From: a virus
Lineage: Duplodnaviria; Heunggongvirae; Uroviricota; Caudoviricetes
Virus record (IMG/VR): IMGVR_UViG_3300045988_152494
Coordinates: 1-39,821 of that record
Direction: 5' to 3' (one strand)
Length of the DNA: 39,821 nucleotides
Position numbers: made by a program. Shown piece by piece: positions 24,001-30,000 of the stretch (position 1 is its first letter; each line of letters begins with the position of its first letter).

Positions 24001-27000
24001 CGCATGACACCCAGGAAGACCAGAAGCTGGTGCTGTGTTAATCCGGCCAGCATCACAGCTTCCAGCAACTCATTTGCAATGCGCGTATAACCATCATCGA
24101 GATCTGCCACGCGCGGCTCCTTTTGTGCCGCATCCGGCACTGGAAAATTGAATATCTCAGCAGTGTTTGCCATAATTCCTCCCGCAATGAGTGTGTTACG
24201 ATTTGCACCTGAAAGTCGGTTCTGTTCCAGCAGACCGGCTTTCGCCATTTCTGAACCTGTCATATTGCCCCCAGCATGGTGGTGACCATCGCCATCAGTG
24301 GACCAGCCAGATCTGGGTCCACACGAAACATCGACACAATACCTTCACTAATTTCCTTCAGTTTCTGGTGGCGTGGTGCGTTGAGAATGACAGCCTGTTT
24401 TGCCTCACTGAGTTCCTTTTCCATTTCAGCCAACCTAGCCATAAAGCTATCCTGCTCAACCAGGTAACCGCGATATTCCAGCGGTAGTACCGCCAGAATT
24501 GCCGGGGTCAGTTCACGCACGTTATTTCGGTATTTTTCAGAATCGAATTTGTTATCGAGGAAGCGGAACAGCTTCTGGCGTGCACGGCTGACATCATCAG
24601 GGAAATCGATGGTGCCGCCGCCCTGCTCCCGATACTCATTCACAATGAGTGCGGCAACAACATCCTGATTATCTGCAGCCGACCACGCGCGAACGGCATC
24701 ACGGATTTTTTCGTGGCCTGGCACCTGTTTTATTTGAGAACGATTTATCACCGCAGTCGGGCTAAATCCGCTAGTCTGTTGGTATGTAAGTGGTTGCATA
24801 GTCATTGCCTTATCAGTTAACGCCGCAGTTTAGGCGGCAGAATTACTCGCGTTAAACAATGGTGCAAGGTCGGGACGAATATCTGCTGGTTTAATCTTTC
24901 CACCAGTGGCTGAGACAATTTTCATTACATAGCGGGCATCAATTCCGCCACCGTGTAGCCAACGCCAAACAGTGGGCTGGGCTACACCGCATAGATCTGC
25001 CAGTCGTTTTTGACTACCTGTAATACTGATTGCGAGTTGAATGGTTTGATTTGTCATTATCAATTCCTATTGGTATTACAATGAATGGATAATAGCAATG
25101 CGTATTAATCCAATCAATAGCAAAACGTGTTTTGACCATCAATACGCAAGCGTATAAATTAAAACTTATGAAAAAAGAAACTCTTGCTGATCGCTTAAAC
25201 CTAGCGATGGAACAATCTGGAATGTCTCAAGGCGCTCTTGCAAAGGCGTCTGGCGTAGCTCAACCCACAATCTGGAGACTGACAAGCGGCAACGCACGCG
25301 GCTCAACAAAAATTGTTGAAATAGCTAATGCATTGGGTGTTCGAACAGAGTGGCTCTCATCAGGCATAGGCCCGATGAGAAATGACGGTCAACAATCAGG
25401 GAAGCCTGCTGTCAACCATTCCAAATACTTCAAAATTGACGTTCTTGATATAGAAGTCAGTGCTGGGCCGGGTGTCATCAACCGTGAGTTTGTAGAAGTC
25501 CTACGCTCGGTTGAGTACTCGTTTGACGATGCTCGTCACATGTTCGATGGCAGGAAGGCAGAAAATATCCGCATCATTAACGTACGCGGTGACAGCATGT
25601 CAGGAACGATCGAACCAGGTGATCTTCTGTTCGTTGATATCACTGTTAAATCTTTCGACGGTGATGGTATCTATGCGTTTCTGTACGACGACACAGCCCA
25701 TGTAAAGCGCCTGCAAATGATGAAGGATAAGCTGCTGGTTATCTCTGATAACAAGAGCTACTCACCGTGGGACCCGATCGAAAAAGACGAAATGAATCGG
25801 GTATTTATATTTGGGAAAGTTATTGGGAGCATGCCACAGACATATAGAAAACATGGGTAGATTATTAATGACAGATTTCATCAAGATAACCAGATGATGT
25901 TTTGGTGAGACATGCTGACATCCTCATAATTTATAGAATGGATGTTTCAAGCAGAGCTTAAGGTATATGGATATGTCAAAAAAAAATTTTGAATTCAAAA
26001 ATTACCCAATAGTCTTTATTGGCTCAGGCATTTCAAAAAGATATTTAGAGAACTACCCAACGTGGGAAGAGCTATTAAACGAGTATTGGAAAATAACAAA
26101 TCCCACAAATGATTTCTATAGTTATCTTTTAACAATAAAAGAATCACATAAAAATAACAGTGATAATGATATCGATCATAAGATTTATACAGAGGCAGCA
26201 AGTAAAATTGAAAATGATTACAATCTATTGTTTAGGACTGGCAAATTAAAATTAAATGGACTAGATGCCAAGAGGGTTTTTAGTGAAGATATTTCACCAT
26301 TTAAATACGCCATATGCCAAAGATTTTCTAATAACACAATCAGAAAGGATGTAAATCTTGATGAATTAGCATCATTTAAAACATTAATAAAAAAGGCCAA
26401 GATAATCATCACTACAAATTATGATGCTTTCATAGAAAATTTACTTCAAGAGCAAAATGTAACTCCAAAACTCTATATTGGAAATAATGGTTTTTTCGAA
26501 GATACTATTGGCTGGAGTGAGTTATACAAAATACATGGTGATATAAAGGATCCACACTCAATAATCATAAATAAAGATGATTACGAAAAATATGACAACA
26601 AATCTATACTCATTAGTGCCAAGATACTATCTAACATGATTAAAAATCCAATAGTTTTTCTTGGATATTCTTTAACTGACAGGAATGTAAAGAAACTTCT
26701 TTCTGATTTTTCCTCACAACTACCTAGAGAAGATGGTCGAAAATCAGCTGAAAGAATAATTTTGATTGAATATAAAGAGAATGAACAGGAAGTAGTACCA
26801 AAACAGATTACCGATCAACAGCTACAAATTACATATACATCTGTTAAAACAGATAACTATAAACAGATCTATGATGAGATCAGTGCTGTTGATGAAGGGC
26901 TCTCACCTTATGATGTTTTAAGGTATCAAAGAGCCATTAAAACACTTATCATTAATGAGGGTGAAAAAGGGCACTTAGATACTCTATTGGTTTCACCTTC

Positions 27001-30000
27001 TGACTTAGACAGACTTGAAGAAAGTGTTAAACAAGGAAAAAATTTAGTTGTTGCTCTAGGCGATAAAAAGTATGTATTCACACAAGTTAAAGAAATAAAT
27101 TATCTTGAAGACTACTTATTTAATAAAAATGAAATATCTAATAAATTAGCCATAGATTTCATATTAGGTTCAGTAAACTCATTACAACTTCCATTTTCAA
27201 AAACTATAACCTCATGTAATTTGAAAGAGTTAAGTTTGCCAGCTAAATATGTGTTAAAACTAAATCAACGCATTGAACGCCACGGAAAACTAGACGACTT
27301 GCTCAATAAAATCACCTTAGATAAAATCAATGCAAATAAAATTTACACCAACATCAAAGATATAAAGGATGCAAAGTTCAAAAAGTACAAAGAATTGTCT
27401 ATAGTCATTAAGAACATAAAAAATATCCCCAAAGAGGAGATTGAAGATTATGTTAAAAAAGAAGCGTTTGTTCAATTCAAGGCATGCGACGTTGACAATT
27501 TAAAAACCCAGTATAGGAAACTATTTCTTGCCTACGACTTGTTGATTCATGGAAATGTTGAAAAGATAAATTAAATAAACGCCCCGTACAAAGCGATGGC
27601 GGGGCTAATAAGTCATTTATGTATCATTTAGCAACTGACTAAAAAAATACACATAAGAACTCAGACTACCAATATTCGATTAAATTTGCTGCCAACCTAC
27701 CGAGCTCACCACAACCCGATGCCCCTCTGTCACGAGGCACATTAAAGCTGTACAAATTTCAGCCACACCAATAAGTCTTCATACTCTTTTTTATAAAAAT
27801 TCATTTAATTATCAATCAGAACAAGTATATCAAACATTATCAATACTAATCGCTATTGACTACACCAATAGCTATTGCTATTGTCATGCTATTGCATCGA
27901 TGTTGGTATCACAAAATTTATAACTTCACCGTTGCGATGACCGCTTAGATCCGCAGCTTGAATTTCAGCAGGCTCCGGGGAGTGCGAGGGGTGAAGCGGA
28001 CGCGTGAACGTCGGTGTGACCAGCTGAAATCAACTCAACACTTCATACCTCAGTCGCTTCAACGAGGCGACTTAGTTATGACAACCGGCGGCCATCCACC
28101 GCCTGAATACGCGCAGAAGTCTCTATATGTTCAGCAGCCCAGCTTACGGGCAGGAGTTTTTATGGTTCATCAACATTACGGAACGCAGACCGTTAATCGA
28201 GGTGCGGTCATGCCAGGAATGCTGGTCAAACACAAAGATGGTACCTGGACTGCATCAGCTAATTTACGCGGACGGCTATATCTGCATCGCGGCATCGAGC
28301 GCACTTATACCCGTGATTTGCTCGTGGAAGTTTTTCTCGACGGACGCGGTAACGGCCTGAATCACTAATCCCCTTTCCTGTTTTCCTAATCAGCCTGGCA
28401 TTTCGCGGGCGATATTTTCACAGCCATTTTCAGGAGTTCAGCCATGAACGCTTATTACATTCAGGATCGTCTTGAGGCTCAGAGCTGGGCGCGTCACTAC
28501 CAGCAGATCGCCCGTGAAGAGAAAGAGGCAGAACTGGCAGACGACATGGAAAAAGGCCTGCCCCAGCACCTGTTTGAATCGCTATGCATCGATCATTTGC
28601 AACGCCACGGGGCCAGCAAAAAAGCCATTACCCGTGCGTTTGATGACGATGTTGAGTTTCAGGAGCGCATGGCAGAACACATCCGGTACATGGTTGAAAC
28701 CATTGCTCACCACCAGGTTGATATTGATTCAGAGGTATAAAACGGATGAGTACAGCACTCGCAACGCTGGCTGGGAAGCTGGCTGAACGTGTCGGCATGG
28801 ATTCTGTCGACCCACAGGAACTGATCACCACTCTTCGCCAGACGGCATTTAAAGGTGATGCCAGCGATGCGCAGTTCATCGCATTGCTGATCGTCGCCAA
28901 CCAGTACGGCCTTAATCCGTGGACGAAAGAAATTTACGCCTTCCCTGATAAGCAGAACGGCATCGTTCCGGTGGTGGGCGTTGATGGCTGGTCCCGCATC
29001 ATCAATGAAAACCAGCAGTTTGATGGCATGGACTTTGAGCAGGACAATGAATCCTGTACATGCCGGATTTACCGCAAGGACCGTAATCATCCGATCTGCG
29101 TTACCGAATGGATGGATGAATGCCGCCGCGAACCATTCAAAACCCGCGAAGGCAGAGAAATCACGGGGCCGTGGCAGTCGCATCCCAAACGGATGTTACG
29201 GCATAAAGCCATGATTCAGTGTGCCCGTCTGGCCTTCGGATTTGCTGGTATCTATGACAAGGATGAAGCCGAGCGCATTGTCGAAAATACCGCATACACT
29301 GCAGAACGTCAGCCGGAACGCGACATCACTCCGGTTAACGATGAAACCATGCAGGAGATTAACACTCTGCTGATCGCCCTGGATAAAACATGGGATGACG
29401 ACTTATTGCCGCTCTGTTCCCAGATATTTCGCCGCGACATTCGCGCATCGTCAGAACTGACACAGGCCGAAGCAGTGAAAGCTCTTGGATTCCTGAAACA
29501 GAAAGCCACTGAGCAGAAGGTGGCAGCATGACACCGGACATTATCCTGCAGCGTACCGGGATCGACGTGAGAGCTGTCGAACAGGGGGATGATGCATGGC
29601 ACAAATTACGGCTCGGCGTCATCACCGCTTCAGAAGTTCACAACGTGATAGCAAAGCCCCGCTCAGGAAAGAAGTGGCCTGACATGAAAATGTCCTACTT
29701 CCACACCCTGCTGGCTGAGGTTTGCACCGGTGTGGCTCCGGAAGTTAATGCTAAGGCGCTGGCCTGGGGAAAACAGTACGAGAACGACGCCAGAACTCTG
29801 TTTGAATTCACTTCCGGCGTGAATGTTACTGAATCCCCGATCATCTATCGCGACGAAAGTATGCGCACCGCCTGCTCTCCCGATGGTTTATGCAGTGACG
29901 GCAACGGCCTTGAACTGAAATGCCCGTTTACCTCCCGGGATTTCATGAAGTTCCGGCTCGGTGGTTTCGAGGCCATAAAGTCGGCTTACATGGCCCAGGT

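Follow-up and report, generated by a model that had tools for sequence, protein, structure and literature searches.

What is a gene of roughly 30% guanine-plus-cytosine (GC) content doing between the repressor and the left operator of a lambda-like prophage? The question is posed by the IMG/VR virus record IMGVR_UViG_3300045988_152494, of which positions 1 to 39,821 were analysed; this whole stretch of 39,821 nucleotides is referred to here as the window. The window is a lambdoid prophage in which the structural and lysis genes occupy the minus strand and are followed by O/P-type replication genes, a YdaT/YdaS-type cII/cro region and the right operator (OR), past which come cI (+), the gene in question (+), the left operator (OL), kil-gam-bet-exo (+) and the integrase (Table 1). 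An open reading frame (ORF) of 535 amino acids begins 106 bp past cI, where an earlier reading of the sequence (the original prediction) had placed it, and encodes an N-terminal SIR2 domain and a C-terminal domain (CTD); it is referred to as the SIR2-CTD gene. It is most likely an anti-phage effector of the defence-SIR2 class that acts alone, a piece of prophage cargo lodged in the position that corresponds to rexAB. The core of the original prediction, a defence-type SIR2 protein with intact catalytic residues, encoded by a single gene in the cI-to-OL slot, is supported; the protein matches PF13289 and resembles ThsA, DSR2 and KomC.

At the level of sequence, the N-terminal half of the protein reads as a defence-type SIR2 domain with an intact active site. 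Pfam SIR2_2 (PF13289) matches residues 146-285 with 84.2 bits (cut-off 24.5; E 1.2e-23), and the profile searches that the original prediction had put forward as a check return this family and the PADLOC model PDC-S25, with no deacetylase-type family. The three motifs picked out in that prediction, the glycine loop FIGSGIS at residues 17-23, Asn151 in TTNYD and His190 in HGD, are present at those positions, are conserved in the family and align with the catalytic residues of ThsA and DSR2. Among 43 homologues reaching down to 40% identity, F17, G19, G21, S23, T149, T150, N151, Y152, D153 and G191 are invariant and H190 is conserved in at least 90%. The best PDB relative by single sequence is the SIR2 core of ThsA (3e-12), with N151 and H190 aligned to ThsA N112 and H152, and a search of the PDB with the family profile returns DSR2 (9e-15), ThsA (1e-12) and KomC (1.5e-12). 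The glycine loop, Asn and His can also be aligned with DSR2, for which entries of an H171A mutant are deposited. An AlphaFold model of the SIR2-CTD protein has a predicted local distance difference test (pLDDT) score of 82.8 and, as its top Foldseek matches, the same three proteins. The closest solved relatives, by sequence and by fold, are thus all phage-defence NADases, and by analogy with them the SIR2 domain would be expected to have NADase activity.

A different possibility is that the gene specifies a lysogenic-conversion or housekeeping NAD-dependent deacylase, or a regulator, acting on host physiology or on prophage induction. A place next to cI would be fitting for a lysogeny regulator too, and one RefSeq homologue carries the label 'SIR2 family NAD-dependent protein deacylase'. 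However, no sirtuin deacetylase family is found in Pfam at E <= 1, at which only SIR2_2 and a sub-threshold RBB1NT are reported, and the protein has only three cysteines (117, 417 and 507) and no zinc-ribbon CxxC pairs. The nearest characterised relatives are all phage-defence NADases, and homologues are found in defence-island contexts and in contexts embedded in restriction-modification (RM) loci. A housekeeping or classical sirtuin (PF02146) is rejected on the grounds that there is no sirtuin-family match and no Zn-binding Cys4 module, and the non-defence explanation as a whole strikes us as decidedly improbable. No NCBIfam model matched the protein.

The part of the protein beyond the SIR2 domain had been described as about 230 residues of K/N/I-rich sequence with no recognisable SLOG, TIR, HerA, Ago or STAND features. 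Neither Pfam nor NCBIfam has a match to residues 296-535, and a C-terminal profile finds nothing better than E 0.09 among PDB sequences, so the second half of that description holds; the first half undersells the region, which on the evidence of the models is a folded domain conserved throughout the family rather than compositional filler. Residues 376-535 are confidently predicted to be an all-helical domain in two structure models. The fold search that had been proposed to accompany the structure prediction gives this domain only generic HEAT/ARM-like similarity, and Foldseek finds no match to it at E <= 0.001 among viral structures. An architecture of about 530 amino acids is kept from Enterobacterales and Morganellaceae to Enterococcus, Listeria, Streptococcus, Carnobacterium and Bacillus, with conservation that is unevenly spread: mean pairwise identity is 0.59 in the SIR2 core, 0.52 in the linker (residues 296-375) and 0.345 in residues 376-535, where the protein varies most. 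Within the linker, GKNLVVALGDKK (residues 357-368; 27035-27070) is nearly invariant and is the best-conserved stretch outside the SIR2 core, and its pLDDT is below 50 in both models, the lowest in each. This motif may serve as a contact surface between the subunits of an oligomer, or else as a regulatory strand.

A profile of residues 296-535 was compared with 1.84 billion representative proteins and has just 112 matches. The full-length ones are about 515-546 amino acids long, match at about positions 290-535 and, in every one scanned, include SIR2_2; the others are fragments, together with one probable chimeric fusion with a truncated aminotransferase. No case of the domain on another effector was found among the 112, and on these matches, SIR2_2 carriers and fragments, the C-terminal domain is confined to this SIR2-CTD family.

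The location of the gene provides a second line of evidence. In phage lambda, rexAB occupies the slot between cI and OL. The SIR2-CTD gene resembles rexA and rexB as cargo between cI and OL that is co-oriented with cI; however, rexAB is two genes specifying a membrane-depolarising pair, whereas a single gene for a predicted NADase is present here, with no sequence relationship to them, and no Rex family is among the Pfam, PHROG and PADLOC matches. The logic of rexAB is expression in the lysogen and exclusion of other phages, and by position the same would be expected of the SIR2-CTD gene.

The boundaries of the cargo can be seen by comparison with phage PhiR30_1, which shares this cI at 96% identity. 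Homology with PhiR30_1 stops at 25867, 7 bp past the cI stop codon, and returns first as diverged operator cores from about 27840 and then at 99% identity from 27925; because of these breaks, the gene is placed in a replaceable cassette of about 2 kb extending from cI to OL. Related inducible coliphages with this type of cI have different cargo in the same slot, including two hypothetical genes in PhiR30_1, an ASCH protein in 4A7, and toxin-antitoxin pairs in PhiR5_1 (HipA/HipD) and PhiR47_2 (GevT/GevA). Judged from these genome comparisons, the cI-to-kil slot is a hotspot in which toxin-antitoxin or defence-like modules are carried as cargo. Brenes and Laub (2025) reportedly described the PhiR phages that have this cI.

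The SIR2-CTD gene is foreign to a lambda-like E. coli (Escherichia coli) prophage. Its mean GC is 0.297, compared with 0.499 for the remainder of the window, and the marked difference from its neighbours that had been noticed earlier is confirmed, with values of 0.28-0.32 along the gene, 0.47-0.49 in cI and 0.51-0.54 in gam-bet-exo. RefSeq starts identical copies at the second ATG (25973), giving 533 amino acids, and it is from this second Met that the homologues align. Equally, the absence of a partner gene between cI and the leftward early genes is upheld, in that the gap from 27575 to kil at 28162 contains no plausible partner ORF; PADLOC matched no other defence model among ten neighbouring ORFs. 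Neither an intrinsic-terminator-like site nor significant structure was detected in the 106 bp spacer between cI and the SIR2-CTD gene, and no RNA family was found in an Rfam scan of 24500-28800. The hairpin that lies 6 nt past the SIR2-CTD stop codon is a candidate for a weak or bidirectional terminator, since it has a U-rich tail on the minus strand only.

How new is the system? The protein matches PDC-S25 over nearly its full length (residues 1-528 against profile positions 1-526 of 528, E 1.2e-235) and PHROG 2695, a family of unknown function, over residues 1-533 (E 3e-203). The window gene is a member of PDC-S25 (PDLC04967/04968, which corresponds to PHROG 2695); both are single-gene and there is no structural difference between them. 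With these full-length matches, and a RefSeq product name of 'SIR2 family protein' already assigned in 166 complete E. coli genomes, the description of the system as unrecognised or novel was overstated. The preprint from which PADLOC draws these models assembles its PDC set (145 candidates) out of genes that lie inside BREX, DISARM and type I RM loci. The literature searched mentions 'PDC-S25' in one setting only, a PADLOC prediction for a strain of O157:H7, and yielded no functional study, the work of Brenes and Laub being outside its coverage. Vassallo et al. (2022) list a Sir2-homologue system and the HerA-like PD-T7-2, and no PD-T4, PD-T7 or PD-Lambda model in PADLOC matched the SIR2-CTD protein.

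Among known systems, the gene fits best as a compact version of the single-chain defence-SIR2 design, with a DSR/ThsA-like effector joined to a family-specific helical domain. DSR2 of Bacillus subtilis, the best match in both the PDB profile and Foldseek searches, is likewise a single chain in which a SIR2 domain at the N-terminus precedes a helical C-terminal region, but is about 1000 amino acids long rather than 535. The similarity is limited to about 100 residues of the SIR2 core (residues 146-246 in the PDB profile search), no DSR model is among the PADLOC matches at E <= 1, and on these three counts membership of DSR2 or DSR1 is rejected. KomC, the Kongming HAM-SIR2 NADase, is similar in the sequence and fold of its SIR2 core, but it is a 264-amino acid SIR2-only subunit of a multi-gene system, whereas the single gene here has an additional region of 240 residues. 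SIR2-HerA, SIR2-APAZ/pAgo (SPARSA) and SIR2-STAND (AVAST) are rejected, there being no partner ORF and no such domains in Pfam or PADLOC, and the PADLOC matches to Aga_SIR2 are weak (E 3e-4) and do not extend past the SIR2 core.

The likeness to ThsA, the SIR2-SLOG protein of Thoeris, is also one of the SIR2 core. The PADLOC ThsA matches are partial and span only profile positions 106-218 of 478; the SIR2-CTD protein is without a SLOG/STALD signal-binding domain, its C-terminal region being all-alpha in the models, and there is no adjacent ThsB (TIR) gene, so that membership of ThsA is rejected. It could still be supposed that the protein is an orphan ThsA-like effector that answers a signal from a synthase, TIR or other, whose gene lies at another place in the host genome, and ThsA SIR2 domains are indeed both the best single-sequence PDB match and the partial PADLOC matches. 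But these matches end at the SIR2 core, a SLOG/STALD domain is missing, no TIR gene lies near the SIR2-CTD gene in nine contexts (the window and eight other loci), and the gene travels as a single unit; we attach very little probability to this explanation.

The distribution of the gene bears on whether it is under selection at all. The SIR2 locus is present at >=99% identity in 166 of 5426 complete E. coli genomes (about 3%), including O157:H7 strains, and in these it is always chromosomal, single-copy and adjoining the repressor. In one of the 166, H40, an IS1 transposase is inserted inside the locus (NZ_AP027626.1 3412070-3414847). This type of cI is full-length in 719 complete E. coli genomes and is present at >=99% identity in exactly 166. 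Because the two counts at that identity agree, a single acquisition tied to one cI allele is suggested; strain GE3 is in both lists of 166, which does not imply that the lists overlap in full.

A single acquisition invites the explanation that the gene is an AT-rich passenger, silent or decaying, that E. coli does not express and that persists through its linkage to a single successful cI allele. The uniformity of the E. coli copies and the matching cI count, suggestive of one recent acquisition, fit such a history, as do the IS1-interrupted copy and a GC of 0.30 in a background of 0.50. On the other hand, the ORF is intact and belongs to a family that is full-length, with invariant catalytic residues, from Enterobacterales to Firmicutes, a pattern that indicates purifying selection, and the same slot is occupied independently in unrelated lambdoid phages of Proteus and Kosakonia. 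We therefore regard a mere passenger as improbable.

In the Proteus lambdoid prophage the homologue lies directly after cI and before N, and in the Kosakonia Rac-like prophage it also follows cI. Streptococcus phages SVep1 and Javan227 carry it directly after a CI-like repressor and before the integrase, and in a Listeria prophage it precedes a serine recombinase, with an Ltp-domain lipoprotein adjacent. In Bacillus and in the lactococcal phage BK5-T the homologue follows the lysis genes, that of BK5-T being ORF30, with an annotated promoter and terminators, and in Enterococcus faecalis it is found among restriction enzymes and a HepT/MNT pair. The homologues are always single genes in the loci compared, DNA homology among carriers is limited to the coding sequence, and homologue GC stays at 0.28-0.32 across host backgrounds of 0.29-0.52. 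Homology confined to the coding sequence and a GC that is constant across hosts point, at least in these sequence comparisons, to the gene itself as the mobile unit. In E. coli CT29 the nin region contains adjacent NADAR-family and phosphoribosyltransferase-like genes (L001 2331-3963), which are not in this window; the pair suggests an NAD/ADP-ribose-related counter-defence or defence.

How, then, might the gene act? The reading that we favour, with a probability of roughly 0.6, is that of a lysogen-expressed, autoinhibited SIR2 NADase for which a phage component is sensed by the variable helical domain, leading to abortive infection. The gene would be transcribed in the lysogen with or beside cI, as its position suggests, and the protein would rest in an autoinhibited and probably oligomeric form, on the model of ThsA, DSR2 and KomC. 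A component of a superinfecting phage would be recognised through the fast-evolving C-terminal helical domain, possibly together with the linker; the SIR2 domain would then be released and, if it behaves as its homologues do, would hydrolyse NAD+ by way of Asn151 and His190, such that infection would be aborted before progeny are made. Defence is argued for by the repeated occurrence of the gene, on its own, immediately behind a cI/S24 repressor in E. coli, Proteus, Kosakonia and Streptococcus, by the defence contexts of its homologues (the RM-embedded source loci of the PDC set, and the restriction enzymes and HepT/MNT pair of Enterococcus), by the toxin-antitoxin pairs that related coliphages carry in the same cI-to-kil slot, and by the fact that no terminator was detected between cI and the SIR2-CTD gene. 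The high divergence of residues 376-535 relative to the SIR2 core fits a recognition surface under an arms race. The abortive-infection effector with a novel sensor domain that was originally proposed therefore stands as to its domain class, its single gene and its slot, falls as to novelty, and for the rest is a prediction from homology and position.

Several points weigh against this reading. The C-terminal domain was never found on another effector among the 112 profile matches, so that the modular-swap argument usual for sensors is missing, and its 'sensor' label is given by analogy to DSR-type proteins. The best-conserved non-catalytic motif, GKNLVVALGDKK, is unmodelled and unexplained. 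No deposited (inducible) coliphage has a SIR2-CTD gene, and some carriers are in apparently defective prophages (CT29, argU/DLP12 site). A gene of about 30% GC in a host of 50% GC may be silenced by H-NS. We infer expression, trigger, NADase activity and phage protection from homology and position, and the authors of the PADLOC source preprint themselves call the PDC systems untested candidates.

The gene may also be one of defence with a different division of labour. The helical domain would then act as a scaffold, for oligomerisation or for autoinhibition, with sensing through, for example, the SIR2 helical insert (residues 33-143), the linker (357-368) or a small-molecule cue; or the SIR2 domain would modify a target by ADP-ribosylation instead of only depleting NAD+. 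Outside the catalytic residues, conservation is indeed highest in the linker motif and not in the helical domain, its disorder in monomer models is as expected for an interface, and KomC and ThsA are, from their PDB titles, small-molecule-activated and filament-forming. However, Pfam and PADLOC reveal no recognisable ligand-binding domain such as SLOG, and the variability of residues 376-535 suits a recognition surface better than a scaffold, so this arrangement seems unlikely to us, though it has more in its favour than the other alternatives considered above. A bolder version of the favoured abortive-infection reading, which we hold only tentatively and rather doubt, is that the helical domain (160 residues) and GKNLVVALGDKK together form a minimal new sensor that directly detects a phage protein and gates the SIR2 NADase, at half the size of DSR2, and is built into the repressor operon in temperate phages whose hosts range from Enterobacterales to Firmicutes. 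Were this true, the carrying prophage would need its own way to avoid self-triggering upon induction.

The operator-like motifs that had been described as flanking the gene prove to flank the cI-SIR2 pair, not the SIR2-CTD gene alone. There is a cluster at OL, and in OR a single exact GCTATTG copy (25115-25121) plus degenerate copies. GCTATTG occurs 10 times in the window against 4.7 expected, which is marginally unusual, and it is the clustering that is the telling feature. The motifs are the ordinary OR/OL boundaries of the immunity region rather than a feature of the SIR2-CTD gene. The true start of cI is likely to be the ATG at 25168.

Beyond OL there is no N-like antiterminator gene between the pL-like promoter and kil (27856-28368), and a leader of about 240 nt (27925-28160) shares 99% identity with PhiR30_1 and matches nothing in Rfam; antitermination in this group of phages may be independent of N. 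Elsewhere in the window, a 164-amino acid ORF in the nin region (21735-22229, minus strand) has a signal-peptide-like N-terminus and a weak match to VasI (type VI secretion, PF11319; E 5e-6) and may be a moron, and a 250-amino acid ORF downstream of exo (30360-31112, plus strand) matches neither Pfam nor PADLOC. Past the prophage integrase come a second tyrosine integrase (33462-34565), an unannotatable 296-amino acid ORF (34575-35465) and a Tn3-family transposase (36179-39157, minus strand), and in this interval (33462-39157) mobile elements seem to have accumulated at the attachment site.

Table 1. Features of the immunity region and SIR2-CTD gene, with cargo of the equivalent slot in other phages. 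Coordinates are those of the window unless another source is named.
Feature	Coordinates	Strand	Remarks
Cro-like (YdaS-type) helix-turn-helix gene	24830..25063	-	Divergent from cI
OR region, between cro-like gene and cI	25055..25125		Operator-like CTATTG/CAATAGC copies
pR-like promoter in OR	25117 to 25089	-	Within OR
cI-type repressor	25132..25860	+	HTH_3 and Peptidase_S24
cI-SIR2 intergenic spacer	25861..25966	+	AAGG ribosome-binding motif before ATG; weak promoter-like match by eye
Variable cargo cassette	25868..27830		Comparison with phage PhiR30_1
SIR2-CTD gene	25967..27574	+	535-amino acid ORF; member of PADLOC PDC-S25 and PHROG 2695
SIR2_2 NADase-type domain, residues 1-295	25967..26851	+	Pfam PF13289, ThsA/DSR2 alignment, Foldseek
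Glycine loop FIGSGIS, residues 17-23	26015-26035	+	Within SIR2_2 domain
Asn151 (in TTNYD)	26417-26419	+	Within SIR2_2 domain
His190 (in HGD)	26534-26536	+	Within SIR2_2 domain
Conserved linker, residues 296-375	26852..27091	+	Contains invariant-rich GKNLVVALGDKK
Family-specific all-alpha C-terminal domain, residues 376-535	27092..27571	+	Putative sensor/regulatory domain
GC-rich hairpin past SIR2-CTD stop codon	27581..27605	+	-14.3 kcal/mol, z -2.1
OL	27852..27894	+	Five exact GCTATTG half-sites including palindrome 27852-27872
pL-like promoter TTGACT-17-TATTGT	27856-27884	+	Overlaps OL operator half-sites
kil, first annotated gene of leftward early operon	28162..28368	+	gam, bet, exo next (28444-30208)
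Prophage integrase	32177-33340		Precedes the second tyrosine integrase
cI-to-kil slot cargo, ECOR-derived temperate phage PhiR5_1	L012 875-2448		
cI-to-kil slot cargo, ECOR-derived temperate phage PhiR47_2	L013 821-2249		
cI-to-kil slot cargo, ECOR-derived temperate phage PhiR30_1	L002 2491-3845		

As a further member of a well-populated class that includes ThsA, DSR1/2 and KomC, the SIR2-CTD protein is an expected addition and would be only a modest surprise to specialists. If active, it would be among the smallest single-chain SIR2 abortive-infection proteins, standing in the rex position in about 3% of complete E. coli genomes and present also in streptococcal, listerial and Proteus prophages. 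A PADLOC candidate would then become a characterised system, and a tractable sensor-effector pair would be at hand in which the trigger and the basis of self-immunity could be mapped with lambdoid phage genetics.

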